64,000 bases of DNA from Opitutia bacterium (GCA_003558065.1 PWMU01000188.1:14936-78935); one strand, 5' to 3'. Positions 7,655 through 52,361 are shown, counted from the stretch's first letter. Notes: generated by a model from the sequence alone, not told the origin. A program made the numbers and translations.

Positions 7655-7663
7655 TTTAGCAGA

Positions 7664-8224
7664 TCAAGGGCCTTCTGGACAGTCATTTATGGGCCCCCTG
7701 CCGTGCGCCGCCGCGTGGGCGCGTGCCACTTCGATGTATTTCAGCGCGTAGTTACGGAGACTGCCCGAATCCTCCTCGGACAATGCTCGCACCACTTTGC
7801 CGGGGGAACCGAGCACGAGCGAACGCGGGGGGCATTGAAAGTGCGCGGTGACCAGGGTGTTGGCCCCGATCAGCGACCCGTCGCCGATCTCGGCGCCGTC
7901 CAGCACTACGGCCCCCATCCCGACCAGGCATCCGGCTCCGATCCGGCAGGCATGGAGAATGGCACGGTGCCCGACTGTTGTGTACGGGCCGACCTCCACG
8001 CCAGTGTCGTCCGACAGGTGCACCACGGTGCCGTCCTGCAGGTTGCAGCCCTCTTCAATCCGGATGCGGTTGATGTCGGCCCGGAGCACGGCCCCATACC
8101 AGACGCTGGTCAACGGCGCCAGGAAAACATCTCCCAGAACGGTCGCGTTCGGCGCGATAAAAAGAGCGCTGTCGATCACCGGCGCCCTGCCGAGGAAACG
8201 TTCAAGCCGTTGATTGAGTTCCAT
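7664..8224 (-). CDS. gamma-carbonic-anhydrase-like / hexapeptide-repeat (LbH) protein
   Basis: FIAPNATVLGDVFLAPLTSVWYGAVLRADINRIRIEEGCNLQDGTVVH and repeated hexapeptide periodicity. Confidence 0.85.
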   Translation of the reverse strand: MELNQRLERFLGRAPVIDSALFIAPNATVLGDVFLAPLTSVWYGAVLRADINRIRIEEGCNLQDGTVVHLSDDTGVEVGPYTTVGHRAILHACRIGAGCLVGMGAVVLDGAEIGDGSLIGANTLVTAHFQCPPRSLVLGSPGKVVRALSEEDSGSLRNYALKYIEVARAHAAAHGRGPINDCPEGP

Positions 8225-11503: not shown

Positions 11504-12637
11504 ATGAGCACACCAAGCCAAGTCAACGCTTCTCCGATTATGGAGAACAATGGGTTACCGCACGGTAAGGCAATGAAAATGGGGCCTCAGAACGGGCTGC
11601 AGTTTCTTCCGACCGTACAGGAATCCCTCGTCGAACAGGATGTATGGGCGCAACTGAGTGAATTTTATGTGCGGAGTGCTCATGTTATCCCCTGGCGGAC
11701 CCGCGGATCCCGTGAACACCTCGAATTCATCGACCCGGCGATCGAATCCTGGCTGGGGCTGCCCGAAAAGAACTGGTACCTTCAGGGGTTCTGGTCGGAC
11801 CGTGTTCATCCGGAGGACCGCGAGGCATTCCTGGCGTTCACCCGGGGCGAAGCGCTCGAGACGGGACTCCACCTCCACCGCTACAGAATGTTGACCCAGG
11901 AAAACGAAGCCATCTGGATTCAGGAGGTGAGTTGCGTGCGGCCGATTTCCCCTGCAGAACGATTGATTTGCGGGATGTTCATCGACGTCAGCCGGGAACA
12001 GGAATTGACCGAAGAGGTTCTCAGGATCAGTAATTTCGAGCGCGAACGCCTGGGACAGGATCTGCACGACGACTTCTGCCAGAACCTGGCGGGGATTGCC
12101 TGCCTGTCGAAAAGGCTTGAGCAGAACCTTCAAAAAGACTCCCCCGCCAACGCCGAGTTCGCCAAAGAGATCACCGACCAAATCAACGAAGCCGTCAACC
12201 GCGTTCGCGCCCTGTCACACAGTCTGTCACCGCTGCAACTGGAAGACGGGGAACTTGTCGAATGCCTGGAGAATCTTGTCCGCGAGACGGAGCAACGGTC
12301 GGGCGTCATCTGCAGCCCCTCCCTGGATCCCACCGTGCAGGTTGACTCTCCGGACACACGCCTCCACCTGTTCCGGCTCTGCCAGGAGGCAATCCGAAAC
12401 GCCGTTTCTCACGGCAAAGCGAGCCAAGTCTCTCTCTGCCTCGTCCGTCAGGATCATTCCCTCTGCAAACTCACCATTCAGGACAATGGCAGGGGATTTC
12501 CCGATCGCCCCACTTCCCACGAAGGGCTGGGCATACGTTTAATGAAACATCGTTGCCGGCAGTTCGGCGGAAACCTGACTCTTCGCAACAGCGCCCAGGG
12601 CGGCGCCATTGTTGAATGTGTTTTCTCCAACCCGTGA
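11504..12637 (+). CDS. sensor histidine kinase (PAS-like + HisKA_3 + HATPase)
   Basis: H-box ERERLGQDLHDDFCQNLAGI. ATPase G-boxes IQDNGRGF and GLGIRLMKHR. Confidence 0.85.
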   Translation: MSTPSQVNASPIMENNGLPHGKAMKMGPQNGLQFLPTVQESLVEQDVWAQLSEFYVRSAHVIPWRTRGSREHLEFIDPAIESWLGLPEKNWYLQGFWSDRVHPEDREAFLAFTRGEALETGLHLHRYRMLTQENEAIWIQEVSCVRPISPAERLICGMFIDVSREQELTEEVLRISNFERERLGQDLHDDFCQNLAGIACLSKRLEQNLQKDSPANAEFAKEITDQINEAVNRVRALSHSLSPLQLEDGELVECLENLVRETEQRSGVICSPSLDPTVQVDSPDTRLHLFRLCQEAIRNAVSHGKASQVSLCLVRQDHSLCKLTIQDNGRGFPDRPTSHEGLGIRLMKHRCRQFGGNLTLRNSAQGGAIVECVFSNP

Positions 12638-12674
12638 AGCTTCGGCGCCAACCCTCGTGATTAAGGAGTAACCA

Positions 12675-13340
12675 TTGAAACGAAAAATTAAAATCTTCAT
12701 TGTCGACGACCACGCGCTCATGCGTCGTGGACTGGCCGATCTGGTTAACAACGAGGAGGATCTGGCCGTATGCGGCGAGGCCGAAGACGCTCCAACCGCA
12801 TTGAGTGGAGTCAGTAAGACCAGTCCGGATCTTCTCATCGCCGATATGTCCCTTCGGGGAAGCAGCGGAATCGAGCTTATCAAGAACGTCAAGGTACTCC
12901 ATCCCGATCTTCCCATCCTGGTGCTTTCGATGCATGACGAAAACATCTACGCTCAACGGGTGCTGCGGGCGGGGGCGAAAGCCTACGTGATGAAGCAGGA
13001 CGCGGCGGAACGGGTCCTGCAGGCGATTCGCAAGATCCTGAAGGGAGAAATCTATGTCAGCGAGCGAGTGGGAACACAGATGCTCCAGCAAATCGTCCGT
13101 GGCCGGTCACCGGCGGAATCCTCGCCGGTCGACCGCTTGAGCGACCGCGAACTTGAAGTGGTGCAATTGATCGGGCGCGGCCGCACCACTCGCGAAATCG
13201 CGAAGAGTCTGAATGTGAGCATCAAGACAATTGAATCTCACCGCGCCCACTTGAAGGAGAAACTTGATCTGAAAAACGCGACCGAACTCGTTCAGTTCTG
13301 CGTACAATGGGTGGAGCAAGAGAACACCGTCAACCGATAG
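12675..13340 (+). CDS. NarL/LuxR-family response regulator
   Basis: Receiver domain (IFIVDDH...LLIADMSL) plus C-terminal LuxR HTH (LSDRELEVVQLIGRGRTTREIAKSLNVSIKTIESHRAHLKEKL). Confidence 0.9.
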   Translation: MKRKIKIFIVDDHALMRRGLADLVNNEEDLAVCGEAEDAPTALSGVSKTSPDLLIADMSLRGSSGIELIKNVKVLHPDLPILVLSMHDENIYAQRVLRAGAKAYVMKQDAAERVLQAIRKILKGEIYVSERVGTQMLQQIVRGRSPAESSPVDRLSDRELEVVQLIGRGRTTREIAKSLNVSIKTIESHRAHLKEKLDLKNATELVQFCVQWVEQENTVNR

Positions 13341-13605
13341 GTCACATGCGATTCAAGCGGAGTCAGGCACGTTTCAAAGCCGACATCCTCGCCGTTGGCC
13401 TAACGCCCGAAACCGGTTTTCCGCGACGTGCATGGCGAATGTGAGTGTCATAGTCCATAGCCCCGACACGCCCCATACAGGGAAAATCGCACAGGCCATT
13501 AGCGTTCTCCCTTATGGCCGGGTCGGACTTTCAGGGGGTACCCCGGAAGGGCGTAACCTGATTGCCCCTTTTTGCCACACACGCTAGAGTGTCACACTAA
13601 AAAGC

Positions 13606-14289
13606 GTGAATAAACACACACCAATCCAAGTTTTCATTATCGACAGTCATCCGGTGCTGGTAGGGGGCCTGCGCTCGCTTCTGGAAGACGCCCAGGGGGT
13701 TGAAGTCTGCGGCAGTGCGATTTCCGTGGATCTGATACCGGAACGACTTAAATCCGCCCCGCCCGATATTTTCATTGTCGATATCTACTTTAAATTCTCC
13801 GAGGGGTTCGAGATTCTCAAGGGGGTACAGTTGAAATTCCCCCAATCCTCGATACTGGTCTTTTCGATGCATGATGAGGCTTTCTACGCTGAAAGAGCTT
13901 TACATTCCGGAGCAAAAGGCTACATTATGATGAATGAAAGTTCAGGCGAAATCCTCCGTGCCATCAGGCAAGTAGCGGATGGGGGATTGTACGTCAGTGA
14001 TCGCCTCAAAAGTATTCTGCTTTCACAACTGGACACCTCATCGAAGCAGGAAATCGTCAACCCGATCAAGAAACTCACCAACCGCGAACTCCAAGTGATC
14101 GAGCTGATAGGTCAAGGCAAGAACAACCGGGAAATCTCAACCCAGATGAATATTCGCCTCAAGACCGTGGAAGCTCACCGGTTTCGCATCAAAGAAAAAT
14201 TAAACCTCAAGCACTCCACCGAATTGATCCAATTCGCAATTCACTGGTTGCAGCGGGAAGGCAGGTTCGACAACGCCCTCTCAAGCTGA
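13606..14289 (+). CDS. NarL/LuxR-family response regulator (second copy)
   Basis: Receiver domain plus LTNRELQVIELIGQGKNNREISTQMNIRLKTVEAHRFRIKEKL. This gene is noticeably less GC-rich than its neighbour. Confidence 0.9.
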   Translation: MNKHTPIQVFIIDSHPVLVGGLRSLLEDAQGVEVCGSAISVDLIPERLKSAPPDIFIVDIYFKFSEGFEILKGVQLKFPQSSILVFSMHDEAFYAERALHSGAKGYIMMNESSGEILRAIRQVADGGLYVSDRLKSILLSQLDTSSKQEIVNPIKKLTNRELQVIELIGQGKNNREISTQMNIRLKTVEAHRFRIKEKLNLKHSTELIQFAIHWLQREGRFDNALSS

Positions 14290-14359
14290 CCATCATTCCC
14301 GATGATACGGGATCGTTGTTTCTGTTCCATCTCACAGGCCTCCTTAATCCTCCTTACTT

Positions 14360-14785
14360 ATGAGCATAAGTTCTTCCTCTAAAGCACGTTCCACTACAAA
14401 AAAAGCGCCGTCAGGCAAGCGAATCCTGCTTGTGGAGGATGAGCCTTCCGCCCTGCGCCTCTTTTCTGAAATTCTCCGAAAAGAAGGTCATGAAGTCGTT
14501 GAGTCCAGCAATGGGGAGGAAGCGATGGAGCAGGTAAAGGGAAAGAAGCCGCAGCAGGTCGACCTGCTGGTTTCAGATCTGGTCATGCCTGGCGTCGGCG
14601 GCCTGGAGTTGGCTTCACGGTTTCGCGAGGTGTATCCAAACACAAAGATCCTCCTTCTTTCCGGGTACACCGAGGACGTGGTGATTCTTGAGGAGCGCCT
14701 GAGCCAGGATACCCACTTTCTGCCCAAACCTTTCCGGGCGGAAACATTCCGAACCAAGATCCAGGAACTGCTTGCGCAGGCATGA
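14360..14785 (+). CDS. single-domain response regulator (CheY-like receiver)
   Basis: RILLVEDEPS...DLLVSDLVMPGVGG...KILLLSGY...PKPF. Confidence 0.85.
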   Translation: MSISSSSKARSTTKKAPSGKRILLVEDEPSALRLFSEILRKEGHEVVESSNGEEAMEQVKGKKPQQVDLLVSDLVMPGVGGLELASRFREVYPNTKILLLSGYTEDVVILEERLSQDTHFLPKPFRAETFRTKIQELLAQA

Positions 14786-15267
14786 AAACACTTCCCCAGA
14801 TCGCTTTATCTCTCGAAGCGAACCGGGGTCTGTTGTTTGAGTTGCTACGTATTTATCTCGGGGTGGCGCTGTTTGTGCGTGGCATGGTGTTCTGGACTTA
14901 CGAAGGCGAAGACCCGCTCTTCGGCTATCAGGACGACATTCACAGCCTGTTTGCCCAGGCCGCATTTGCCCACTACATTATCGGAGCTCACCTGGCGGGC
15001 GGATTACTGCTGGCCGCCGGGTTATTAACCCGTATCGCGGCACTCGTTCAAATCCCGATCCTTTTCGTTGCCGTATTCTTCCTTCACTTTCAGGAGGGCC
15101 TTTTCGCAGCCGGACAAAGCCTGGAGCTTTCCGCTCTGGTCCTGTTTCTGCTGATACTGATAGTTCTCCACGGGCCCGGACGCTGGTCCGTGGACGCGTG
15201 GCTGACGGAATCGCAACGGCTCCGGAAAAGCAACACCTCCCCCGGGAAAGAAAGGGAACAGGAGTAA
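14782..15267 (+). CDS. DoxX-family membrane protein
   Basis: Four hydrophobic helices. There is a 4-nt overlap with the upstream receiver gene. Confidence 0.65.
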   Translation: MKTLPQIALSLEANRGLLFELLRIYLGVALFVRGMVFWTYEGEDPLFGYQDDIHSLFAQAAFAHYIIGAHLAGGLLLAAGLLTRIAALVQIPILFVAVFFLHFQEGLFAAGQSLELSALVLFLLILIVLHGPGRWSVDAWLTESQRLRKSNTSPGKEREQE

Positions 15268-15463
15268 TCGGAATGCAACTCGGTTAGGCGGGTAGATCGA
15301 TGGAAGGATGGGTACCGCAGGCACAACGGACACACCCCACCGCTCTCCAGAGGGGGGACCATGGGCCAGCATGGTGGGGTGTGTCGACCAACCGGCCTGA
15401 ATCTTCCACTCTCCCAAAAGCCCAACCCTTCGGCTCGAGGCCGCTAACCGAGCGCCATTCGGA

Positions 15464-15880
15464 CTAATCCATCTCTGCCTGAACCGCCTCCAAAATGCGT
15501 TCGGACAGATCGCGTTTCTCTCGCTGCACAACTTCGATCTCTTCCTCCAGCTCGGCGATACGTTCCTCCCGCTCCGCCACCCGTTCTTCAAGTTTCTCTC
15601 TCAGCTCTTCGTTTTCGGAAGCCTCCTCCAACTCTTCGCGCAGGCGATCCTTGAGCTGACGCAGCTCCGCCAGCTCATCTTCCTTGCGTGCCGAGGTTCC
15701 CCGGGCCTCCTCCAATTCCTGCTCCAGCGTCTCGATCCGCTCCTCCGATTCCGCAAGGGCCTCCAACAGGTGATCTCGCTCGGAAACAATGCTGTCGTGC
15801 TCCTCGCGACTGACACACCCGGACAAAACGGCCATGACAATGATTCCTTGAATGATCCACTTCAAACGACGCTTAACCAT
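15464..15880 (-). CDS. coiled-coil lipoprotein
   Basis: Lipobox VMAVLSGC followed by E/R/L heptad-rich sequence. Confidence 0.6.
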   Translation of the reverse strand: MVKRRLKWIIQGIIVMAVLSGCVSREEHDSIVSERDHLLEALAESEERIETLEQELEEARGTSARKEDELAELRQLKDRLREELEEASENEELREKLEERVAEREERIAELEEEIEVVQREKRDLSERILEAVQAEMD

Positions 15881-16111
15881 TTTCTGCTCCTGTTCCTGTT
15901 ATGTTTTAGTTGACGCCCCGGAAGTGGAACCGACCGAATCCAGCGAGATTTCCGGCCGGCTCTCTAATCCGCTCACGAGCGTGATTACAGACTATTAAGG
16001 GAATTCACCGGTGCCTTGCGGACGCGAACAACCCTTTGATAGTAACAACTCTATCCAGCTGTCAAGCAGGCTCGACTCAGGGAAACCGTTCGATGTTTTC
16101 CCGTTTCCCCC

Positions 16112-17527
16112 TCACACCAACTCCAACTTCACGGCGGATTCGGCCGCCTGCAGGCGATCGATCGCCGCGCGCCGCTCCTCGCCCAACAACTGATGGGCCG
16201 GGACATATACGGCCTCGAGATCGGACACCGCTCCTTCCTCCCAGGCTCCGTCGAAAAGCGCAACGGTCCGTTTCCCCTGGCGACAGAGGCGGTCGGTCAA
16301 CTCACGGTACGGCTGAACGTAGTCCGGATCGGCACGCGGTCCCAGCCGGTCCCGGGCCGATTCGGAGAAGACGATCCCAACCGGCCGGCTGCCGGTATCG
16401 CTCGGGAAACGGGGAAACTCGATACGTTCGCGCAGCATTTCCTCTTCCGTCGGCGCCCCCGTCGTCCGCGGTTGTTTGCTTATCCAGGGTCTTGCCTTAT
16501 GAAACTCAACTGTTTTCAACCACGCCTCCATTTCGCCGACGTCCCTGGGATAAAACAATGCGATGAGCGGCTTGTCATGCTGGCGGGCGAGACCGGCGAA
16601 ACCGGTGAGATCGGAGGCGATCGTCGCGTCATCCCTTCCGGGCCGGTGCTGATGAAAGATCTCGTGAAAAACCGCATCCCAATGGGGAACGTAATGCTGA
16701 GGCGAAAAACCGATCCCCGCCAGCCGCGCTTCAATCGCCCCGGAGGCACAGCCCCAGATCGGAATCTCGCTCGGGAGCCGCTCGCGTAACCTCCGGTAAA
16801 AATCACCGTTCCACCGGTACCGGGCGGCGATCCATTTCAGAAAGTCCGGGTTCTCAAAGTTCTCCCAGAATTCGCGATCCTCCGCCGGAGGCAGTTCAAT
16901 CCCCTCTTCCTCGTGAAAGCGTTTGCGGCAATGCCCGCAGGCACACGAGTGGAAATCGGGTAGAAAATGAAGGTCGTCGGCCATGTAGGCGTCGATCGGC
17001 ACAGCCTCTCTGTGCCGATCGGCGTAGCCCAGGTAACTGCGCTGATGGCCGGGATGATTCGGGCAGAAACACTCGCAAGTATACCTTTCAAAATAAACCG
17101 GTTGTCCGTCACGGGCTGAAACCTGACGCCAATCCGCCATAGGTTCCCCCCGGTAGAAGGCGTGCTCCCAGCCGTCGGGATAGAAAGGAACGTGATGGAA
17201 GTTACGCTCCCGGATATCCCACCGGTCCCGCTCGTTGCGCACCCGGTGAACCAGAGTAGCCGAGTGGTGTTCAACCACTCGAAGACCGTGGTCATGACAG
17301 ATGTTTGAAACCTCCCGCAACATTCCGAACACGCGCTCGAAATGGGCATAGTAATCAAACCTGAAATGCAGGCCGAACATCACAACGGTATTGATTCCGT
17401 GCTTCTGAAAATGGAGTGCCCTGGCCGTCCACCTGGCGGTCAGCCCAGGGTCCGGCCAGGCGAAATCCTCCCAGGTCAGCCACCAAGAGGCAAGAACGGC
17501 ATCGTGTATCCAGTCTTTCGAATTCAT
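16112..17527 (-). CDS. hypothetical protein (possibly glycoside-hydrolase-like TIM barrel)
   Basis: 471-aa ORF with ordinary, W/H/Y-rich amino-acid composition. I recognise no motif with confidence. Confidence 0.55.
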   Translation of the reverse strand: MNSKDWIHDAVLASWWLTWEDFAWPDPGLTARWTARALHFQKHGINTVVMFGLHFRFDYYAHFERVFGMLREVSNICHDHGLRVVEHHSATLVHRVRNERDRWDIRERNFHHVPFYPDGWEHAFYRGEPMADWRQVSARDGQPVYFERYTCECFCPNHPGHQRSYLGYADRHREAVPIDAYMADDLHFLPDFHSCACGHCRKRFHEEEGIELPPAEDREFWENFENPDFLKWIAARYRWNGDFYRRLRERLPSEIPIWGCASGAIEARLAGIGFSPQHYVPHWDAVFHEIFHQHRPGRDDATIASDLTGFAGLARQHDKPLIALFYPRDVGEMEAWLKTVEFHKARPWISKQPRTTGAPTEEEMLRERIEFPRFPSDTGSRPVGIVFSESARDRLGPRADPDYVQPYRELTDRLCRQGKRTVALFDGAWEEGAVSDLEAVYVPAHQLLGEERRAAIDRLQAAESAVKLELV

Positions 17528-33877: not shown

Positions 33878-36800
33878 TCATTTGCGGAAATCCAGAACGC
33901 GTTTGCGTCCGTCTTTGGTGAGGACGACGACGCCGCTGTTCCAATCGGATTGAATAAAGGGACTGTCGAAGACCTTGTCCGGGGCGAGGTCAACCGGCCG
34001 GTTGTTGACTTCCGGGAGGGAGCTGTGGTCCGCGTAAAAGGTGAAGGTGTCGCCGTAAAGCCCCGTGTAGGTCATCACCCGGCCTTCACCCTCCCATTCA
34101 GGCGACAACTCCATGACCGCGTCCCGGAACGCTCCGTAGTCCTCGTAGTCCCGCTTTCGAGCAACCTCGATAATCACAGGAGTGAAATCATCCTCCGGCA
34201 CCATCCATCCTCCGTGATCAAACCGGTCCTCGCTTCCCGTCCAGCCATGGCCCCCTCGCGCGGCACGAACGGCCGCGTAGGCGCCCGCCGCTTCCACAAA
34301 CACCCAGCCGTTCTCCTCCACGCGATTCCACAGGCCGTGCTCCTCATCGCTGAACCACACCCGCATGGCTTCAGTATAACGGGTGTAGTCGTCGGGAAGG
34401 CGCTGAGTGATCAGAGTGCCCTTGCGCTGGACGCCCCATTGGGCATTGTCCGTTCGTCGATGATCGTGCGGTTCGCCGCCGCGGCATTGCGGGACAATGC
34501 GTGCGTCTTCATGCCCGGAAAAAATGACTCCCATCCACCGGTTCTGCATGCTCATGATAGCCCAGTCCTGATACGGGCGGGATTCGACCACCGGAAGACC
34601 CATGACAAAATCCGGCGTGGCGTAGGTGTAGCGCAGAATCCCTCCGTAATCGGTTCGCATGCGAAAGCCCGACGTTCCCCAGGTCCCCGGCTCGATCAAT
34701 CCCGGACGCCGTTCGAGCACCTCGCAATTTCCGCGCCCCTCCAGGTCAAGTGCAAGATCCACCACCACCAGCGGCAGCCGGTACCCGCTTGTCAACACGG
34801 TAAAAAGTTCCCGCTGCGGCGAACGCGTTTCTCCGATTCCCAGGTAATACGCCGCCATCGGCCGCAGGTAATCGTCCCCGATCCGATCGCCGCCGGTCTG
34901 GTAAATCCGCGCCTTACCTCCGCCACGCACCCCGTCGAGATGCTCCTGAGCCCAGGACGCCCAATAGAGGTCCAGAATGCTCCCCGCCAGCCGCTTCAGT
35001 TCGGGATCGTTCGAAAAGTCGTAGAAATTGTAGATCCCCTTTAAACTGTGCGCCCCATAGCGCCCGTTGGCGAATTCGACAAACAGGCCCCGCTTGCCCC
35101 GCTCGCGGAAATACGCCTTCGCGTAACTCGTCCAGGCTTCGTAGTGTTCGGCCGCCGTATGGCCGTCGTTGTACGCCAGATCCCGATACTCCGGCCGTTC
35201 TTTCAGCAGTTTGCTGAACTGCCACAGCGTCGAATATTTCATCAGATGATGATTTTCCGAAGTCGGCGCCGGCCGCGGCGGATCGGTCCATACGCCGACG
35301 TGCCAGGTATCGCGCTGCGCGTCTTCGAGAATGGAGTTGGCCGACGCGTAGTCCCACATCAGTTGGTAGATCCTCTCCTCGGTTTCGGGTTCCAGACGGC
35401 CGGGAGCCATCGAGCCTTCGGCGCCAAAAAACTCCACGATCCGGCACATCACATCGGTCACCCAGTGCAGATTGTCGCGATCGTCGCGTTCTTCAGGGTT
35501 TTCAATATAAAATTCGCTGTGTTCGTGGAGCGCGGCGTTGGCTTCGTCCAGCTGCTCCCCGTTCCGGAACGCCCGCATCGCAAAATCCATTACTGAATAC
35601 GAGTAATGCCGCGTGTAGCGGGGCCGGCCGGGACCCAGAGGACCGCGCTTGGGTGCTTCCTCGAACGGCTCGCCGCGCAGCGATTCAAAAGCCTCGTCGC
35701 GCCGGGTTTCAAATTGTGCGCGGAGCCGGAACAGTTCCGCATCGCTGAAACGGCCCGCGGCCGGTTGCAGGTTGAGGCGGAAAAACCGGCGGTCAGTGGC
35801 GACGTCTCCGGATTCCCCGGCCGCCACGGTCACTCGTTCAAGTTCGCCCTCGTCGACCACATCGAGTTCCTCGACGTACTCCTCACCGGAATGCCACTCG
35901 AAAAGGTTCTCCGAAACTTCAACCCGCGAAGCGACATCCGTCGCTTCAGTTGATCGCGCGAATCTGAAAACGAACTGCCCCTCGATAGAATCAAGCCGGG
36001 GAAATGCCTCCCGGGCAGCAGGCTTCCAGGGATCGAGTCCCATCAGATATTTCAGGAGGTTTACCATGCCGTCGCCCGCAGGGTTTCCCCAAACACCGCT
36101 CAATCCGGCGTCCTCCATCTCATCAAGGCTGAAATGCGTCGCCCGCCACCGGTGGAAACGCGAAAGTCCGCTGTCATCTTCGATCGTCAGCAACACCAAC
36201 CGCGGCGCGGGAAGTTCGTTGTGGCGGCTCGAGGCAAAACGGAACTCCCGGTTGCGGTTCTCCCGAAGCGTCAGGATAAAAGTGATACGTTCACGATCGC
36301 CGCGTTGATTGAGAAAGTCGGTCAGTGCGGCACTTCCGTCGACAAGTCCCAGCCACGCTCCCGCGGACGGCTCGTCTGCGGCCACTGTCACCGAGAAACC
36401 CCCGAGCCAGGTCGTTTCCCCGAGATTGACGCCCGGGGCCGCCGATCCGTTAGTATCCTCCGGATCGCCGCCCCCGAGCGCCTGCGCGTTGCCCGGTGCC
36501 AAACGCCAGGTAACCGGAGAAGGCGGCGACGCCTCGACATAGCCGTTGTCCTCCGTCACCCCGGTTTCCCCGCCGCCTTCGACCCATTCCGCGCCCCGGT
36601 GTCCGTAATCCAGAGCGAACAGATTGAAGAGATAGTCACCTTCCGCCGCACCGGCGAAAGCCAGTTTCAACCGGGCGTCGACCAGCGTTCTTCCGCGAAT
36701 GTCCGACAGGTCGAACCGCAGATAACTGTGCTGGCTGTTTCCTCGAAGATTGCCGGTATGGTAATAACGTACGTTGAGCGTATTCGAATCGCCGAAATTG

Positions 36801-36982
36801 CGATCGTAAGCGTCGTTGTTACCCTGGATGTAGGAGTCGGCCTCCGGATGCAGCACCGCCTCAACCGGGCGTTCCGCGGAAAGGCGATTCCCCCCGAACA
36901 CGACAACCATCAAGACCCCGGCAAGCCCGATGGCCCTGTGGACCCAGGCGGGACCGGGAGAAACCTGGAATCTCATTACCAT
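33878..36982 (-). CDS. large secreted protein: N-terminal DNRLRE-like domain, internal GDGxxNLxKY module, C-terminal helical enzyme-like region (polysaccharide lyase/hydrolase-like?)
   Basis: Signal-like MVMRFQVSPGPAWVHRAIGLAGVLMVVVFGG. NFGDSNTLNVRYYH...SYLRFDLSDIRGRTLVDARLKL resembles DNRLRE-type domains. GNPAGDGMVNLLKYLMGLDP...RRFFRLNL follows. The function of the C-terminal two-thirds is not recognised. Confidence 0.65.
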   Translation of the reverse strand: MVMRFQVSPGPAWVHRAIGLAGVLMVVVFGGNRLSAERPVEAVLHPEADSYIQGNNDAYDRNFGDSNTLNVRYYHTGNLRGNSQHSYLRFDLSDIRGRTLVDARLKLAFAGAAEGDYLFNLFALDYGHRGAEWVEGGGETGVTEDNGYVEASPPSPVTWRLAPGNAQALGGGDPEDTNGSAAPGVNLGETTWLGGFSVTVAADEPSAGAWLGLVDGSAALTDFLNQRGDRERITFILTLRENRNREFRFASSRHNELPAPRLVLLTIEDDSGLSRFHRWRATHFSLDEMEDAGLSGVWGNPAGDGMVNLLKYLMGLDPWKPAAREAFPRLDSIEGQFVFRFARSTEATDVASRVEVSENLFEWHSGEEYVEELDVVDEGELERVTVAAGESGDVATDRRFFRLNLQPAAGRFSDAELFRLRAQFETRRDEAFESLRGEPFEEAPKRGPLGPGRPRYTRHYSYSVMDFAMRAFRNGEQLDEANAALHEHSEFYIENPEERDDRDNLHWVTDVMCRIVEFFGAEGSMAPGRLEPETEERIYQLMWDYASANSILEDAQRDTWHVGVWTDPPRPAPTSENHHLMKYSTLWQFSKLLKERPEYRDLAYNDGHTAAEHYEAWTSYAKAYFRERGKRGLFVEFANGRYGAHSLKGIYNFYDFSNDPELKRLAGSILDLYWASWAQEHLDGVRGGGKARIYQTGGDRIGDDYLRPMAAYYLGIGETRSPQRELFTVLTSGYRLPLVVVDLALDLEGRGNCEVLERRPGLIEPGTWGTSGFRMRTDYGGILRYTYATPDFVMGLPVVESRPYQDWAIMSMQNRWMGVIFSGHEDARIVPQCRGGEPHDHRRTDNAQWGVQRKGTLITQRLPDDYTRYTEAMRVWFSDEEHGLWNRVEENGWVFVEAAGAYAAVRAARGGHGWTGSEDRFDHGGWMVPEDDFTPVIIEVARKRDYEDYGAFRDAVMELSPEWEGEGRVMTYTGLYGDTFTFYADHSSLPEVNNRPVDLAPDKVFDSPFIQSDWNSGVVVLTKDGRKRVLDFRK

Positions 36983-37224
36983 GCTTGTTCCCTGCGATTG
37001 CTTCGCGCCTAAAGAGTTTTCCATCCTCGCGCACCGATCCGGGCAAACGAAAAGACCGACAATTCCACCGCACGGTTTTGACACGGATCACCCCATGACC
37101 AGTTACTGGGACTCTGTGGCGAAGGCGACCATAACAGGTTCGCCGTAATCATGGGCCTTGCGGACTGAACGGGGCAAGCTTTTTTCGGGCGCTCTGCAGC
37201 GGCGCTTCGGCTGCTAAGGACGAG

Positions 37225-37660: not shown

Positions 37661-38866
37661 ATGCGGAATTCCCAATCGCAAATGGAGGAAAGGCAGTTGT
37701 CGATTATGGTCCCAAACACCCGCCGTCCGCCCGCAAGCTGCGGTACCGCCAAAGGAGAGTACAGGCTGGTGATGGATTCTCCCGGCGACGCGGGAATCGG
37801 GCTTGTCAAATCTCTGCGTTCGGTCTGTTCCTGTTCGGACCGGGAAATCGCCCGCCGGATTTTTCAATCGCCCTCGCTCCTTCTTTCCGATCTCGACCGC
37901 AACGCCGCGGAAAAACTCTCGGGAATTTTAAACCAAACCGGGGCCAAAACCCGGGTCCTGCCCGCCGGCAGGGAATTCGTGGAAGGGAAAGGCGAATATG
38001 AAATCGCGCTTGTCGTGCGCGACATCGAGCGAATCGGCGATGTCCTCGCCACCGTCTGCCGCCTGCTGCATGTGCAACCTGTGGAGGTGATCAACCTTAT
38101 GGTGCGAAGCCCCGCGGGTTTGGCGGGAAACCTGTCGCTGGCCGCCGCCGAGGCGTTCCGGGATTCGCTTTCCGTCGCGGGCGCCGAACTGGATATTTCG
38201 AAATACAGGGAAGCCCGTTTCGATGTTTTTCTGGGCCGGAGCGACGACATGGACCGGAGGCGAATCCGGGAGATCCTCGTCCGGGCCGGTATCGACACGC
38301 CCCCCGTACGCAACGAAAACGGTTCCCCGCAGCCCATGGCCGCGACCGATCTCGGATGGAACGAAGTCGACCGCGTGCGAAAGGAACTGACGCGTTTTTC
38401 CGAGCAAGTCAAAATCCTCAACCGGGATTTTGCCCGTTTCGATATCGTGCTGCAGCGGACCGGAGATCATCCCCGCAAAGTCTCGGAGATCCTGAAGGAT
38501 CGTTTCGGAATTCCCGGAACCGTCCATGCCCGCCTGCTGGGCGCACTCCCGGTTGCTTTGGCCCGGGAAGTGCCGTGCGCCGAAGTCGGCGGGCATCTCA
38601 ATGCGCTCGAATCCGCCGGCGCCACGGCCGGCGCGAACATGACTTCGCTCCAAACGTTTGATCTCCGTATCGACACCGTCGAATCGCCGGAAAAAACAAT
38701 CAGCATCCTCGCAATGCTCGGCGGGAAACAGGCGTCCTCGCTTCCGAGTTTACGGAATGCCGGACTTCCTGCCCTTGTAGAGGGTCCGTTTACGCCCCTC
38801 CAGGCACGATGGCTGCAGAAGGACCTTCGCGCGGTCGGAACACGCTGCGCCTTGAAACTCCGCTGA
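37661..38866 (+). CDS. operon gene 1: protein of five tandem ~70-aa repeats resembling the ribosomal L7/L12 C-terminal domain
   Basis: Repeat 1, EYRLVMDSPGDAGIGLVKSLRSVCSCSDREIARRIFQSPSLLLSDLDRNAAEKLSGILNQTGAKTRV, aligns column-for-column with the E. coli L7/L12 CTD: [67 protein letters not shown]. Further repeats begin at EYEIALV, ARFDVFL, ARFDIVL and QTFDLRI. The start is ambiguous (ATG 37661, 37682 or 37706). Confidence 0.75.
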   Translation: MRNSQSQMEERQLSIMVPNTRRPPASCGTAKGEYRLVMDSPGDAGIGLVKSLRSVCSCSDREIARRIFQSPSLLLSDLDRNAAEKLSGILNQTGAKTRVLPAGREFVEGKGEYEIALVVRDIERIGDVLATVCRLLHVQPVEVINLMVRSPAGLAGNLSLAAAEAFRDSLSVAGAELDISKYREARFDVFLGRSDDMDRRRIREILVRAGIDTPPVRNENGSPQPMAATDLGWNEVDRVRKELTRFSEQVKILNRDFARFDIVLQRTGDHPRKVSEILKDRFGIPGTVHARLLGALPVALAREVPCAEVGGHLNALESAGATAGANMTSLQTFDLRIDTVESPEKTISILAMLGGKQASSLPSLRNAGLPALVEGPFTPLQARWLQKDLRAVGTRCALKLR

Positions 38867-46695: not shown

Positions 46696-48309
46696 ATGGC
46701 GTTCACGCAAGACATCTGCACTCACCTTCGCAGCGACATCAAAAGAATGTGCAGGACGCCTTCCCGGTCGCGATACTGGAACGGCCGTGAACTGGTCCGA
46801 TCGGTGCTCGAACGCAGCCGGGCCGAGACGGGGCTCGAAATCAGAGTGGTCCTGTATGATCCGCTGGCCGACAGCGGACTTTACCGTCGATGGGAAAATA
46901 ATCTCGGGGAAGGCGACCGGACCGGGGAAACCAATATGAATCCGGAGGCGGCCGCCGAAGGAATCCGTTGTGTGGTAAAGGTTGGCGACCACGAAATCGA
47001 GCATTGGAGGTTTCAATCAGACGAGTCCGATGACGAGACGGAGGAATACACGGTCGAACAGGGTGACCTGCTGGATCATATCGCCCGGGACGAGTTCAAC
47101 GGCGCGGATGTCAACGATCTGAAAATCTTCCGGAACGGCGACGACCGCACGGATGACGTGCTGGAGGATCCGCCGGTCAACCTTCACCCCGGCGATGTCG
47201 TGCGCCGGAACCTACCGGCGGGGGGACCGGTGCTCCGGTTAACCGGCGATATCTCAATAGGTGGTTTGTATACGGTCGAATTTCCCGGCCTCTCGACGAT
47301 GGGGCGGGACAAGGCGGATCTATCGATTGTTAATCATTCCCTGTACGATTCCGGCTCCGACTGGGACGATCCCAAACCGAGGGAGCGCATTCGGTTGCGC
47401 GCCCCGGGCTCCTACACCATCCGGGTCTGGCTTCGTCCGAACACGATCGTCTTCCATTGGCCGGTCGAAGAGTACCGACCCAACAGGGCGAAATACAGGT
47501 ATCATTTCCATGTCCAGGGGCCCGTCGACGGCGACGACGACAATATTTCATGGAAGGCCGGAGGGGAACATTCCGGAAAGCCGGCTTCCTGGCGCTTCTG
47601 GTGGCACAATTTGAGAATCAATGGAACCTCGGACCTGGAAAAGGAGCATCCCGGCCATGAAACGATCACGATCCCGATCGGCCGCGGGCTTGGAGCACGG
47701 GGTACCTATCATAATACGGCCTCGCACGGATATTGCGCACATGCGGCGGGCTTTAATACGAATTCGATTGGAATCGCCTTTTGCGGCATGGAAGGGGTTC
47801 CCGACAACGACATTGATTTTGAACCGGGCGATGAGCACGAGGATTGCTACTTGCTGACAAAAGAGCAGATGAAATGCGGGATACGTGAGATCGCGAGGCT
47901 GTGCCGGGCATGGCGGCTCGACCCGATGGATCCAAACCGCCTTTGCACGCATTATGAGGTCGACAGGATCCACAGGGGCGAAGGAAACAAATGGGATATC
48001 ACCTGGCTGCCCGGAGCGTTTCAGGAGGGGTACAGGGCGTTTCTGGCCGGGAATGAAGCCCATTTCGAAACCTGGACGAACTTTGACGCCGAGGATGCCG
48101 GATTATGCGAAGACGGTGACGGAAACTACCGGCGACGCGTGGACATACCCCTGAATGACTGGAAATCCGAACACAGGGGCGACGACTCGCCGGATCAAAC
48201 GGACCGAGTCAGCGATTACTTGCGTCGCCTGGTAAAAGGCGTCATGGATAATCCCGGCAGCACCGACCTGAACGAGAGCGCCTATTGGGACGATGTGGTT
48301 TACGATTGA
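46696..48309 (+). CDS. operon gene 12: amidase_2 domain protein with LysM-like insert
   Basis: Same landmarks as gene 11: IVFHWPVEE, YHFHV, HAAGFNTNSIGIAFCG and LCTHYEVDRIHRGEGNKWDI. A LysM-like YTVEQGDLLDHIARDEFNGADVNDLKIF...NLHPGDVV occupies the position of the coiled coil in gene 11. No signal peptide. Confidence 0.8.
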   Translation: MAFTQDICTHLRSDIKRMCRTPSRSRYWNGRELVRSVLERSRAETGLEIRVVLYDPLADSGLYRRWENNLGEGDRTGETNMNPEAAAEGIRCVVKVGDHEIEHWRFQSDESDDETEEYTVEQGDLLDHIARDEFNGADVNDLKIFRNGDDRTDDVLEDPPVNLHPGDVVRRNLPAGGPVLRLTGDISIGGLYTVEFPGLSTMGRDKADLSIVNHSLYDSGSDWDDPKPRERIRLRAPGSYTIRVWLRPNTIVFHWPVEEYRPNRAKYRYHFHVQGPVDGDDDNISWKAGGEHSGKPASWRFWWHNLRINGTSDLEKEHPGHETITIPIGRGLGARGTYHNTASHGYCAHAAGFNTNSIGIAFCGMEGVPDNDIDFEPGDEHEDCYLLTKEQMKCGIREIARLCRAWRLDPMDPNRLCTHYEVDRIHRGEGNKWDITWLPGAFQEGYRAFLAGNEAHFETWTNFDAEDAGLCEDGDGNYRRRVDIPLNDWKSEHRGDDSPDQTDRVSDYLRRLVKGVMDNPGSTDLNESAYWDDVVYD

Positions 48310-48422
48310 ATTTTAGTTTTTCTCAGCGACGCCGCTTTTTTCATTCGGCTTGCGGGAATCCCCGGGAAGGCGGACGTCCCGCCCGCCTAATCCCTCGGAC
48401 GAAACGCTCGCTCACCCACACC

Positions 48423-51299
48423 ATGAAAAACCCGAAATCATCGACAAAACAGAGGAAGCCCCCGGTGAATCCGGCCTTTCCGGATGAGCTTCGGACCCGG
48501 GAGGCGAGCCGCCTGCGTGACAGAAGGCGTGCCGCGGGCATCGGAGTCAATCGGCCCGGCGGCGGCACCCCGAAACCGGAGGTCGGCTTCGGCCTTTCCG
48601 GCGGCGGGATCCGCAGCGCGACGTTCGCCCTGGGCTTTTTCCAGGGACTCGGCCGCGCGAAACTGATCCGTCACATCGACTACCTCTCCACCGTTTCCGG
48701 CGGCGGATATTTCGGGTCCTTCCTCGGCCGGCTCTACACCCGGAATCAGGTTGAAAATGTCGACGATGTGGAGGGAATTGTCAGTGGCGAGATGCCGGCA
48801 AACACCTCCGCCCACGGCGAACGGGAAACGAAGACAGAAACGCGTTTGAACCCATCCGGAGTGCTCCGGTATCTCCGCGAGAACGGCCGCTACCTCTCGC
48901 CTAACGGCTCGGGCGATCTGCTCCTCGGCGGCGCGGTCCTTTTGCGAAACTGGTTCAGCGTACAGGTCGTGCTGGCCGCATTCGTTGTGTTGTTGTTCGT
49001 CCTGGCACAGATCCCTTATCGCGTCATCGAAGCGTCGCAGTGGCACGATAACGCAAAGCTGTCGCCCGCGCTGGATAACGGACTGATACTCAGCCCGTAC
49101 CTGGCCCTGGGCGCCGTCGTCCTGGTGCTGGGCGCCCTTCCGCTCGGTTGGGGGTATTGGCTTGTCGGACACAGGTTGCCATTGTCCTGGCGCGTTCCGC
49201 GCACCTTCATCCATGTCCTGCCGCCTTTGGTTCTGGTCGTTGCGGCTGTGACCGGAATGTTTCTGTCTCAATCTCCGCACCCCGTCCTCCCGGCCCTCGG
49301 ACTCGTCGGACTGTTGACAATTGTGTTCGCGTGCGTCTTCGATCGCCGGCTGCCGCAAAGCCTGACCGGGAAACCCGGGCCATCCGCGGGGCACGAGAAG
49401 GAGTCAGCCTCCTCCATCGCCCGCGCGCGCCACAGCATCTCGACGTGGCTGAAGCGGATCCTGCTCGTCGCAGCGGGAATTCTGGCGCTCGCGTTTTTTG
49501 ACGTGATCGGTGCAACCGCCCACCTGATGATGACCGAAGGCCGGCTCACGGCCTGGCTGGCCGGCGCGGCCGGCGCGATTCTCGGCATCGCCGCCCTCGC
49601 ACGGAAAATCGTCGCGTGGATCAGTCCGTCAGGCGACCGGCGGCCGGGCATGCCGGCCTCGTTGGCCGGAACCTTCATCGCGGGCGGTGTGCTGATCCTG
49701 TATCTCGGCATCATGGCCACCATCGCCCACGCGGCGTCGCATGGATATCCATCCGTGATGGCGGGCACCGGTTATCTCGCCCGGACGACGCCGGCCGGAC
49801 AGCTTTTTTCGATCGGAATCGCCGCCGTGATCCTGTCGATCTTCGTCATCCTCCTGGGCAATGCCACCGCGTTTCTTAACCGCTCTTCACATCACGCGCT
49901 CTACAACGCCCGGTTGACGCGCGCCTATCTCGGCGCGTCGAATCCGCGGCGCCAGGGCCGGAGCGAAAGTTCGGTGCTTAATGTGATCGAGGAGGACGAC
50001 GTGGACCTGGGCGTCTACCATGACGCCTCCCATCAAGAGAAGAAGGCCATGCCTCTCCACCTGGTAAACGTCACGGTAAACGAAACCATCGACGGCCGTT
50101 CGCAGGTGCAGCAACAGGACCGCAAGGGCATGAACTTGGCCCTCGGGCCGTGCGGCATGAGCGTTGGCGTGCGTCACCACGCCATCTTTGGAGGCTCAGG
50201 AAAAAACGCGCATCCGGAAACATCCCCGCGACCGTACGCCGCCGAATCGCCGCTGATCATCCGGCCGGAGGATCCCAACGGCTATCGCGTCTTTGAATTT
50301 CCCGGGGAGAGGGGCGGGGCCGCGTTCTGCGCCGAACCGTTCACTCTCGGCGGCATTGTCGCCATCTCGGGGGCCGCGTTCAGTACGGGCCTCGGTTCGC
50401 GGACCCATTTCGGCCTGAGCCTGCTCTGCGGCCTCGGCAACGTGCGTCTCGGGTACTGGTGGGACTCCGGTATCGATCCGGACAATCGCAAGGTCCCGTC
50501 TCCCGTATCTCAATGGCGGCGCAAACTGGCCGAATGGCTTCCCGTTTACAGTTTCCTATTCGGAGAGTTGCTCGCGCGTTTCCGTGGAACCGCCTGGCGG
50601 CATTGGTATCTCTCCGACGGCGGACACTTCGAAAATCTGGCCGGCTATGAACTTATCCGTCGCCGTGTGCCCATCATGGTCATCCTCGACGCCGAAGCCG
50701 ATCCGGACTACACTTACAACGGGCTGGCCGATCTCATCCGAAAGGCGAGAATCGATTTCGGCGCGAGCATAGAGTTTCTGAATGAAGACGAACTCGAGAA
50801 ATCCTCGCTGACCTCGGTGTTCGGTTCGCTGGAACAGCTCCGGCGAACCGACCGGGACGCCCGGACAGTCACCGCCCGCGGCGAGTCATCCGTCACGATG
50901 TATTCCGCACGGCATGCGGCCCTCGCCAGAATCACCTACGACGACGAGGCGAATGGGGAAAACGCGCCCGAGCGCTGGCTCGTCTACATCAAACCCACAC
51001 TCACCGGCGACGAGCCAGCGGACCTTATCGAATACCTGATGAAGCACCCCACGTATCCGAACGAGCCCACCAGCGACCAGTTCTTCGATGAAAATCAATG
51101 GGAAAGTTACCGCAAACTGGGGGAACACATCGCGGATCTGCTCTGCCCGGATGACGACGCGTTTTTTACCCGTTTCGTTCGCGGCTATCCAATAAAAACA
51201 GCCGGAAAACGAACCACCCGAAAACCGCGGGCAGCTTCAACATCAGGGAATCCGGCAGTCCGGCGCCCGTCTCCTCCCCGCCCCAACCAGGGATCGTGA
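48423..51299 (+). CDS. operon gene 13: patatin/cPLA2-like phospholipase with ~8 transmembrane helices inserted between the Ser- and Asp-bearing halves
   Basis: Oxyanion motif GLSGGGIRSA (~48591-48620). Nucleophile elbow YLSTVSGGGYF (~48681-48713). Catalytic-Asp motif YLSDGGHFENLAGYELIRRR (~50607-50666). Between them (~48910-49880) lie repeated 20-25-aa hydrophobic stretches, for example VLAAFVVLLFVLAQI, LALGAVVLVLGALPLGWGYWLV, LVLVVAAVTGMFL, LGLVGLLTIVFACVF, LLVAAGILALAFF, LAGAAGAILGIAALA, FIAGGVLILYLGIMATIA and IGIAAVILSIFVILLG. The start is taken at MKNPKSS (ATG 48423); ORF 48285 would overlap gene 12. Confidence 0.8.
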   Translation: MKNPKSSTKQRKPPVNPAFPDELRTREASRLRDRRRAAGIGVNRPGGGTPKPEVGFGLSGGGIRSATFALGFFQGLGRAKLIRHIDYLSTVSGGGYFGSFLGRLYTRNQVENVDDVEGIVSGEMPANTSAHGERETKTETRLNPSGVLRYLRENGRYLSPNGSGDLLLGGAVLLRNWFSVQVVLAAFVVLLFVLAQIPYRVIEASQWHDNAKLSPALDNGLILSPYLALGAVVLVLGALPLGWGYWLVGHRLPLSWRVPRTFIHVLPPLVLVVAAVTGMFLSQSPHPVLPALGLVGLLTIVFACVFDRRLPQSLTGKPGPSAGHEKESASSIARARHSISTWLKRILLVAAGILALAFFDVIGATAHLMMTEGRLTAWLAGAAGAILGIAALARKIVAWISPSGDRRPGMPASLAGTFIAGGVLILYLGIMATIAHAASHGYPSVMAGTGYLARTTPAGQLFSIGIAAVILSIFVILLGNATAFLNRSSHHALYNARLTRAYLGASNPRRQGRSESSVLNVIEEDDVDLGVYHDASHQEKKAMPLHLVNVTVNETIDGRSQVQQQDRKGMNLALGPCGMSVGVRHHAIFGGSGKNAHPETSPRPYAAESPLIIRPEDPNGYRVFEFPGERGGAAFCAEPFTLGGIVAISGAAFSTGLGSRTHFGLSLLCGLGNVRLGYWWDSGIDPDNRKVPSPVSQWRRKLAEWLPVYSFLFGELLARFRGTAWRHWYLSDGGHFENLAGYELIRRRVPIMVILDAEADPDYTYNGLADLIRKARIDFGASIEFLNEDELEKSSLTSVFGSLEQLRRTDRDARTVTARGESSVTMYSARHAALARITYDDEANGENAPERWLVYIKPTLTGDEPADLIEYLMKHPTYPNEPTSDQFFDENQWESYRKLGEHIADLLCPDDDAFFTRFVRGYPIKTAGKRTTRKPRAASTSGNPAVRRPSPPRPNQGS

Positions 51300-51608: not shown

Positions 51609-52361
51609 TCAGCCCCTTTTCCGCCTCGGGATTCGGCGCACCAAAAGCAACCCCGCAACCATTCCGCCCGCGAGGAGCCCGTAGGTCGACGGCTCCGGTA
51701 CCGCGATGAGCGAGACGTCGTCGACCATGAAATCGTCCAGCCGGCCGTACGCCCCTACCGTTCCCCCCGCAAGGGTGGAGAATGAAGCCGAACGCGTCCA
51801 CGTGTCCGCCCCGTCGGAAATCGCAAAGGAGTACTCACCGGGATCGGTCATTGCGACCATGACCTCGTAAAACTCGCCTGTCACGACGTCAAACGGCAGG
51901 TCCTCACTGAACACCGCTCCTTCCGAACCGTCGATAAAGCGGTAAAACTGCACGCGGTTGTTCGGTTCGCGAAAGCGGAGCGCGAGGAAATTGTTGTCGT
52001 CCCGGATATTGAAGGCAGGACCGGCAAATCCTGAATTCAGGTTGAACTGCGGTGAGAACAGGCCCTCGTAGGTGAACGGCTCGGTCAGGTCGTAGTTATC
52101 GGGCACGAATTCCACCAGGCCGACGTCGTTGGCCGGGTTGGGCTGCAGCGAGCCGCTGCCCGTTTCGCCGCCGAGAACGCCGTCGGTGATACGCCAGTTT
52201 CCATTCAGGGAGTTCCAGTCGGTTCCGAGTTCGGACCGGTCGAAATCGTCGGTCCAGGTTACGGTCTGCGCCAGAGACAGGAACGGCAGCAATAGCAGCC
52301 CTCCCAAAGCGGTGCCCGCGAGGCGAAAGGTTCGGAGAAACAGGGATGTTTTAGTTTTCAT
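51609..52361 (-). CDS. PEP-CTERM-anchored secreted protein with one LamG/jelly-roll-like domain
   Basis: Signal peptide MKTKTSLFLRTFRLAGTALGGLLLLPFLSLA. C-terminal sorting signal VPEPSTYGLLAGGMVAGLLLVRRIPRRKRG. Its domain is shared with the next gene (NNFLALRFREPNNRVQFYRF). Confidence 0.8.
   Translation of the reverse strand: MKTKTSLFLRTFRLAGTALGGLLLLPFLSLAQTVTWTDDFDRSELGTDWNSLNGNWRITDGVLGGETGSGSLQPNPANDVGLVEFVPDNYDLTEPFTYEGLFSPQFNLNSGFAGPAFNIRDDNNFLALRFREPNNRVQFYRFIDGSEGAVFSEDLPFDVVTGEFYEVMVAMTDPGEYSFAISDGADTWTRSASFSTLAGGTVGAYGRLDDFMVDDVSLIAVPEPSTYGLLAGGMVAGLLLVRRIPRRKRG

Follow-up and report, generated by a model that had tools for sequence, protein, structure and literature searches.

The C-terminal domain (CTD) of the ribosomal stalk protein bL12 is among the best-studied small domains, and is viewed as a ribosomal module, present singly, whose task is to recruit translation factors. 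The ribosome bears 4-6 bL12 CTDs. The fold it has in common with ClpS is an established protein-binding adaptor module. Here we describe a stretch of 64,000 nucleotides (nt) from an Opitutia bacterium, indicated as a whole as "the window", where a gene, referred to as gene 1, encodes a series of such domains on a single chain and heads an operon, found also in other phyla:

37661..38866, + strand: gene 1, five tandem bL12-CTD-like domains, 401 amino acids (aa) as annotated

Outside the ribosome, the same fold class is found in ClpS (PF02617), a stand-alone, single-domain adaptor acting by protein binding. Single L12/ClpS domains have also been reported as insertions within vWA proteins, in beta-propeller vWA-MoxR conflict systems (Kaur et al. 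2020, PMC7159879). Such insertions and ClpS are the only documented non-ribosomal uses of this domain that were found. The vWA-MoxR systems and the locus described here share the non-ribosomal use of the L12/ClpS domain, in multi-gene systems of large-genome bacteria (PMC7159879), but the former feature a single insertion beside a MoxR AAA+ ATPase, while gene 1 is a separate five-fold array; neither vWA nor MoxR was matched when the window genes were scanned with Pfam, or among the hits precomputed for the related loci. A five-fold array of this kind, not recognized as a known protein in the initial annotation, is not named in Pfam, NCBIfam, PADLOC, PHROGs, cluster names or the literature searched. 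As a separate protein within such an operon, a fixed five-fold array appears to be undescribed.

Five bL12-CTD-like repeats in gene 1

Gene 1 is confirmed as a row of five collinear domains, homologous to the bL12 CTD and located as follows:

37757..37963, +: repeat 1 (R1), aa 33-101; the most bL12-like, gap-free against the E. coli CTD
37994..38203, +: repeat 2 (R2), aa 112-181; beta-alpha-alpha-beta-alpha-beta (b-a-a-b-a-b) arrangement
38216..38422, +: repeat 3 (R3), aa 186-254; degenerate, a loop replacing the second helix; its C-terminal end is ILNRDFxRFD
38432..38641, +: repeat 4 (R4), aa 258-327; seen by BLASTP with the E. coli CTD, in the AlphaFold2 (AF2) model and by hhalign
38654..38863, +: repeat 5 (R5), aa 332-401; conserved GPFxxLQARWL helix; missing from four-repeat variants

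When curated models were compared with the whole protein, PF00542 matched R1 (aa 36-97; E 2e-4; 22 bits, for a gathering cut-off of 25.9), and TIGR00855 matched aa 29-99 (E 3e-6; 27.5 bits, for a cut-off of 84.4). With isolated repeats, PF00542 was weakly matched by R1 and R2, while R3-R5 had no Pfam match. The E. coli CTD, by BLASTP, matches R1, R2 and R4. A profile built on four family sequences was compared with all PDB sequences: of 15 matches, 11 are to bL12, and these comprise the ten best, with R1 aligned (1ctf, E 4e-5) and R2 aligned separately (E 1.3e-4). Per-repeat profiles were then derived from 130 full-length family members; against a small bL12-CTD reference profile, made of three sequences, hhalign probability was 97% for R1, 95% for R2, 51% for R3, 96% for R4 and 93% for R5. 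When every repeat was compared with each of the others, the probability ranged between 78 and 98%.

The AF2 model of gene 1, based on an alignment of four sequences only (predicted local distance difference test, pLDDT, 77.7; predicted template modelling score, pTM, 0.69), features five b-a-a-b-a-b units, separated by linkers of 4-5 residues at the R2/R3, R3/R4 and R4/R5 junctions; in R3 the second helix is lost and a loop, at about residues 209-225, takes its place. In the Foldseek search against PDB the first match of the model is 1ctf (template modelling score on the target, TM-target, 0.89; root mean square deviation 1.3 A, 67 columns), followed by other bL12 structures; ClpS is found at rank 38 (9ayn_B, TM-target 0.66). 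The viral library gave the same picture, with phage ClpS among the matches.

The initial annotation, made from the sequence alone, had proposed five L7/L12-CTD-like repeats, the first of which would align without gaps to the E. coli CTD, and had made the proposal depend on a profile match and on the predicted fold. A bL12 match and a b-a-a-b-a-b fold were both obtained: the five repeats are upheld by profiles, AF2 and Foldseek, with R3 degenerate, and the alignment of R1 agrees with the one anticipated.

No tandem repeat was detected in the DNA of gene 1 by Tandem Repeats Finder, and no internal repeat by BLASTP self-comparison of its product: the repeats are visible to profiles and structure, and to nothing else. 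This indicates an ancient, diverged duplication, not a recent one.

Public assemblies list the identical protein with a length of 389 or 386 aa, and the true start is therefore likely to be either TTG 37697, preceded by GGAGGA 8 nt upstream, or ATG 37706. With either start the N-terminal ~30 aa are unstructured in the AF2 model, and the five-repeat finding is unaffected by the choice. A Shine-Dalgarno-like sequence is missing before most genes of the operon, an exception being the TTG start at 37697.

Comparison with bL12 and ClpS

Gene 1 and bL12 share the b-a-a-b-a-b fold, and are homologous by both profile and structure. Gene 1 keeps a first strand of FDV type, an Ala-Pro ahead of strand 2 and a Gly-Ala ahead of strand 3. 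Gene 1, in contrast to bL12, has five copies per chain instead of one, and lacks both the long flexible hinge and the N-terminal dimerisation/L10-binding domain. The absence of the latter had been pointed out in the initial annotation, and is confirmed: neither Pfam nor NCBIfam gave a match to the bL12 N-terminal domain, and residues 1-30 are unstructured; family homology begins about 14 aa ahead of R1. The genomic context also differs, as gene 1 is surrounded, in about 19 loci, by genes for a tetratricopeptide repeat (TPR) protein and for the ELGFTP proteins described below, and not by rplJL-rpoBC.

The loop-helix TGLGLKEAK, involved in factor binding by bL12, is missing from all five repeats, as read from their sequence. 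The bL12 residues which we take to be responsible for factor binding are, in E. coli, K65, V66, I69, K70, R73, L80, E82 and K84 (helices 4/5): among 130 family members, conservation is seen at none of these positions, whichever the repeat. What is conserved across the family determines the fold: Ala-Pro and Gly, which precede strands 2 and 3 respectively, and the FD of the first strand. The scores of gene 1 fall under both the Pfam and the TIGRFAM curated cut-offs: the repeats are homologous to the bL12 domain, but lie outside the bL12 family by curated thresholds. On its sequence, gene 1 is not a ribosomal protein.

ClpS is a weaker structural match than bL12 (TM 0.66 vs 0.89), and the ClpS Pfam profile did not match any of 10 isolated repeats, even at E<=10; no Clp ATPase was seen in the window operon or in the related loci. 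The L7/L12 pattern of the initial annotation is thus the closer one, by both sequence profile and Foldseek.

The gene 1 family

A word-indexed search returned four relatives only, and an exhaustive HMMER search was used for the census. It led to 492 cluster representatives (50% identity clusters) at E<=1e-3, 174 of them below 1e-30. The best 150 of the 492 matches are nearly all 355-400 aa long, with all five repeats covered. The order R1-R2-R3-R4-R5, where each repeat has its own signature, is found in 129 of 149 sequences; the remaining 20 are mostly apparent shortened gene calls, and three of them are four-repeat (R1-R4) forms. The most conserved motif of the family is ILNRDFxRFD, at the R3/R4 junction; a second family-specific motif, GPFxxLQARWL, is located within R5. 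None of the family members looked up carries an informative name beyond "hypothetical protein", and cluster look-up provided no name for the proteins of the window's own operon. A new five-repeat family is defined by collinear R1-R5, by the NRDFxRFD junction motif and by a position as first gene before TPR and ELGFTP a-d, all of which were found.

A conserved operon headed by gene 1

Related loci were collected by a genome scan with a 14-sequence alignment, and by contig look-ups; they are indicated by "L" and a number. The same operon is present in about 18 loci besides the window, from Desulfobacterota, Bacteroidota, Myxococcota, Chloroflexota and Proteobacteria: hosts include Desulfonema magnum, Saprospiraceae, Lewinellaceae, Myxococcales, Chloroflexia, Anaerolineales, and alpha-, beta- and gammaproteobacteria, among them Granulosicoccus antarcticus. 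The core comprises ten genes, in the order L12x5 (gene 1), TPR, ELGFTP a, b, c and d, charged helix, partial ELGFTP with an immunoglobulin (Ig)-like region, PASTA, and ELGFTP-PASTA. In the window, gene 1 is followed by:

38879..39466, +: TPR protein, 195 aa; second gene in every case, matched by generic TPR models only
39469..40074, +: ELGFTP paralog a, 201 aa
40110..40583, +: ELGFTP paralog b, 157 aa
40626..41138, +: ELGFTP paralog c, 170 aa
41167..41724, +: ELGFTP paralog d, 185 aa; better conserved than any other core protein
41745..42623, +: helical protein rich in E, R and K and highly charged, 292 aa; its length ranges over 232-535 aa in the various loci
42651..43334, +: partial ELGFTP domain and C-terminal Ig-like (Big_1-like) region, 227 aa
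43353..44105, +: charged helix (coiled-coil) and PASTA domain, 250 aa
44139..44774, +: ELGFTP paralog with a fused PASTA domain, 211 aa; the last core gene

Gene 1 is always first, as the initial annotation had noted for the window and as holds in about 18 other loci, and it is kept in every locus reached via ELGFTP-d. Its upstream neighbours are unrelated between loci, and divergent in five of the six examined. The TPR gene is tightly linked to it: its start overlaps the gene 1 stop by 4 nt in eight loci (L004, L009, L010, L011, L013, L019, L020, L021) and follows it by 8-16 nt in three more, one of which is the window (12 nt). Orthologs of the 43353..44105 protein contain a LamG (laminin-G-like) region in L018, by Pfam, and in L008, by sequence reading.

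Curated family models match only short TPR, Ig-like and PASTA stretches of the core operon, and Pfam and NCBIfam scans revealed no translation-related gene within it. Gene 1, TPR and ELGFTP proteins have no match in PADLOC or PHROGs, where cross-matches of the PASTA domain are the sole ones; a known anti-phage defence system, or a phage structural module, was therefore rejected, there being no system-level PADLOC or PHROG match. Hydrophobic segments and signal peptides were looked for in gene 1, TPR and ELGFTP proteins, and none was found. Promoter, terminator and Rfam scans of the 36-52 kb region gave nothing above chance, and no tRNA is present within the window.

In Desulfonema magnum (L004, NZ_CP061800.1), about 6 kb of apparently unrelated genes (11691-17517) split L12x5-TPR from the ELGFTP genes. 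By reading of their N-termini only, these resemble one sensor-type gene and one HAD-like gene, with two reverse-strand open reading frames besides. This gap, together with an altered ELGFTP order, indicates that the operon seems to be rearranged there.

ELGFTP proteins, and numbers of repeats and paralogs

ELGFTP proteins share a conserved N-terminal helix, an ELGFTPxFYQ strand, a variable loop, which sometimes carries a domain, and a conserved C-terminal SYxxKYxY...LVPVPPP. No relative was found in Pfam, NCBIfam, PDB, PHROG or PADLOC. ELGFTP-d alone is represented by more than 2100 clusters, with about 60% identity across phyla. When modelled by AF2 as a monomer, it reaches a pLDDT of 61.6, and its C-terminal half stays below 50 despite a 59-sequence alignment, which suggests that ELGFTP subunits may fold on assembly, and need partners to do so. 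Foldseek candidates obtained from this poor model are meaningless (best E 1.1, prefoldin). Two Pfam leads, DUF2589 (E 0.007) and Trypco2 (E 0.04), were rejected as chance-level matches, since 37 ELGFTP proteins had been scanned.

The Big_1-like protein of 227 aa contains a partial ELGFTP domain (hidden Markov model positions 69-139, E 4e-10), so that the ELGFTP-related count of the window is five plus one. In a Lewinellaceae locus (L008, 13331-14272), paralog c carries an insertion of about 85 aa before the ELGFTP strand, with a ...TVTNGGSGYT... motif, indicating that the pre-ELGFTP loop tolerates whole-domain insertions.

Five canonical ELGFTP genes accompany a five-repeat gene 1 in ten distinct loci. 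The initial annotation, from the five and five of the window, had considered either a coincidence or, alternatively, a chaperone or adaptor with one domain per subunit. When counted locus by locus, repeats and paralogs do not track. ELGFTP genes range from 5 to 8 per locus: they are 7-8 in L008, L009 and L011, where gene 1 still has five repeats, and six in Granulosicoccus antarcticus (L018, CP018632.1), where gene 1 (6689-7684, 331 aa) is composed of R1-R4. R5 is truly absent there, since the gene 1 stop is followed at 16 nt by the TPR start. A strict one-repeat-per-paralog rule is refuted by these cases, that is by five repeats with 7-8 paralogs and four with six; the repeats may instead map onto the five universal orthogroups (a, b, c, d and PASTA-fused). 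In L018, an extra ELGFTP gene is fused to a helix-hairpin-helix (ComEA-like) DNA-binding domain.

A four-repeat sister family in Rhodobacterales

Through a weak match in L017, a second family was met, the members of which (about 296 aa) are collinear with R1-R4 (hhalign 99.9%, E 3e-32, 281 columns) and have the NRDFxRFD junction motif in common with gene 1:

L017, 5115-6005: sister gene
L022, 9001-9891: sister gene
L023, 9001-9870: sister gene
L024, 6001-6900: sister gene

In all four loci the sister gene lies immediately upstream of motB-flgE-flgK-flgL-flgI. Like gene 1, it precedes, as first gene, a set of paralogous assembling subunits, which suggests that the same module was recruited twice to operons of self-assembling paralogs. 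The two families differ in that the sister one is limited to four repeats, bears a hydrophobic segment at its N-terminus and is not followed by TPR or ELGFTP genes; moreover, 70-95 nt separate it from motB with no overlap, whereas gene 1 often overlaps TPR. To our knowledge, the sister proteins are unstudied. Two named candidates were rejected: MotK is 652 aa long and is encoded downstream of motA2 (PMC10954123), and CP1 lies in the fliC-flaF-flbT cluster (PMC12363192). The flagellar cluster has been drawn as beginning at motB (PMC12363192).

Variable genes around the core

The genes flanking the core are large, non-homologous between loci and often present as paralogous pairs; they look like an interchangeable set of enzymes or cargo. 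Variable flanking stretches are found at 44827-51299 in the window, 14334-19840 in L019, 14199-18012 in L021, 14784-17443 in L018 and 5791-9911 in L009. Those of the window contain:

44827..48309, +: two paralogous proteins, 595 and 537 aa, with a weak Amidase_2 (peptidoglycan amidase) match; non-core
48285..51299, +: membrane protein of 1004 aa, about 8 hydrophobic segments; non-core

The 1004-aa protein has no Pfam match, and is putatively patatin-like on the reading of GGGxR, TVSGG and DGG motifs. Its TTG start overlaps the preceding amidase-like gene by 25 nt (48285-48309), and the real start may be further downstream. Elsewhere, a PG_binding_1-like protein is included among the variable genes of one locus, a type III effector-like inositol phosphatase is found just upstream of the operon in one Chloroflexia locus, and a trypsin-like gene adjoins the operon in L018.

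Regions of the PASTA, Ig-like and amidase types are usually active outside the cytoplasm. The core proteins, those bearing PASTA and Ig-like regions included, are free of signal peptides and of hydrophobic segments. In the window, the PASTA, Ig-like and amidase-region proteins are all without an export signal, and only the 1004-aa protein is membrane-embedded. On the 5' side, the operon is flanked by a divergent gene (33878-37084, - strand), coding for a 1068-aa protein with a CBM96/DNRLRE carbohydrate-binding module; on the 3' side, by a PEP-CTERM protein gene (51609-52361, - strand).

Possible roles of gene 1

The proposal which we tentatively prefer is that gene 1 and the TPR protein act together as a cytoplasmic scaffold or chaperone for ELGFTP subunits. 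Gene 1 is read as a soluble, cytoplasmic, non-ribosomal protein, where five diverged bL12-CTD modules follow each other on very short linkers and probably make up a single, rather rigid unit. Acting with the TPR protein, gene 1 would bind the structural ELGFTP paralogs, stabilise them or put them in order ahead of assembly. This proposal is favoured by the first position in the operon and the tight linkage to a small TPR gene, by the absence of hydrophobic segments, which points to a soluble product, by the adaptor nature of the fold, of which the insertions in vWA proteins (PMC7159879) offer another instance, and by the poor folding of ELGFTP subunits alone, as modelled for ELGFTP-d. The fixed five-repeat architecture also speaks for it, as does the sister family, which heads another operon of self-assembling paralogs (motB-flgE-flgK-flgL). 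When scores against orthologs are expressed as bits per residue, gene 1 ranges between 0.24 and 0.74, and ELGFTP b, c and d between 0.7 and 1.4: the faster evolution of gene 1 is what one would expect if it were an accessory factor and not a polymer subunit.

A functional analogy, and no more, is offered by type III secretion, whose small TPR chaperones include class II translocator chaperones and needle co-chaperones such as PscG. They are cytoplasmic proteins of ~160-200 aa, encoded beside the genes of self-assembling subunits, sometimes with a second co-chaperone, and hold needle or translocator subunits. A cytoplasmic TPR protein beside small subunit genes is common to both systems; the gene 1 operon, in contrast, is devoid of secretion apparatus genes, and its L12-repeat partner has no counterpart there.

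A few observations weigh against the scaffold or chaperone proposal. The count of repeats does not follow that of paralogs (five with 7-8, four with six). A rigid body of several domains, as suggested by the pTM of 0.69, would fit a structural part equally well. That ELGFTP proteins are structural subunits is itself presumed, since they have no Pfam, PDB, PHROG or PADLOC relative. Finally, the sister family, with its hydrophobic N-terminal segment, may occupy a different compartment.

Gene 1 might, alternatively, be itself a structural part, a hub, cap or base onto which ELGFTP paralogs dock: we consider this possible, if rather unlikely. A rigid five-domain body is predicted (pTM 0.69, with 4-5-residue linkers), each repeat is conserved individually across phyla, the modal number of canonical ELGFTP genes, five, equals that of the repeats (ten loci), and gene 1 is strictly kept in loci found through ELGFTP-d. 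Yet gene 1 evolves faster than the ELGFTP subunits, and in Granulosicoccus its four-repeat version coexists with a full paralog set; the first position and the tight TPR linkage, moreover, would be more typical of assembly factors.

It is improbable that the family controls when or where peptidoglycan-binding partners engage the cell wall, as might be thought from the presence of an L12-repeat protein at the head of operons including PASTA proteins here, and MotB (MotB_plug and OmpA domains) in the sister clusters: export signals are missing from both gene 1 and the PASTA proteins, and the same adjacency holds for many other genes.

A ribosomal-stalk mimic, namely a sensor, decoy or translation regulator binding EF-Tu, EF-G, IF2, RF3 or stalk-targeting proteins, appears very improbable. 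The domains are true bL12-CTD homologs, the ribosome has 4-6 such domains, and R1 of the window has K, R and E, as it happens, where bL12 has K70, R73 and E82; but the factor-binding positions listed above are unconserved in every repeat, among 130 members, the TGLGLKEAK loop-helix is gone from all five, and the operon holds no translation-related gene.

That the repeats, like ClpS, recognise degrons of operon proteins, whether N-terminal or not, and pass them to a protease is hardly credible: the fold is common to both (9ayn_B, TM-target 0.66; phage ClpS matches), and a trypsin-like gene lies near the operon in L018, as a subtilase gene does beside the sister gene in L017, but no repeat matches ClpS in Pfam at E<=10, all are clearly nearer to bL12 in sequence and structure, and neither a Clp ATPase nor a protease is conserved in the operon.

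A more speculative picture, which we regard as unlikely, may also be drawn. Gene 1 would be a pseudo-five-fold template, derived from a recycled stalk domain, which, with the TPR protein, orders ELGFTP a, b, c, d and the PASTA-fused paralog into a hetero-oligomeric starting complex. The operon would then encode an unrecognised, signal-peptide-less filament or particle, displaying peptidoglycan-, DNA- and sugar-binding modules and carrying interchangeable enzymes (amidase-like, phospholipase-like by motif reading, perhaps inositol-phosphatase-like, protease), and would have spread horizontally through at least five phyla.

Conclusions

Gene 1 is a known domain type in a new arrangement, within an uncharacterised, widespread operon. 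Here the bL12 CTD occurs in an array fixed at five copies, within a large and unnamed family where the factor-binding motif has been lost. Gene 1 thus provides a concrete entry point into a widespread operon of bacterial "dark matter", for which Desulfonema magnum and Granulosicoccus antarcticus are cultured hosts, available for genetics; the hypothesis of a module recruited twice is open to test in tractable Rhodobacterales.

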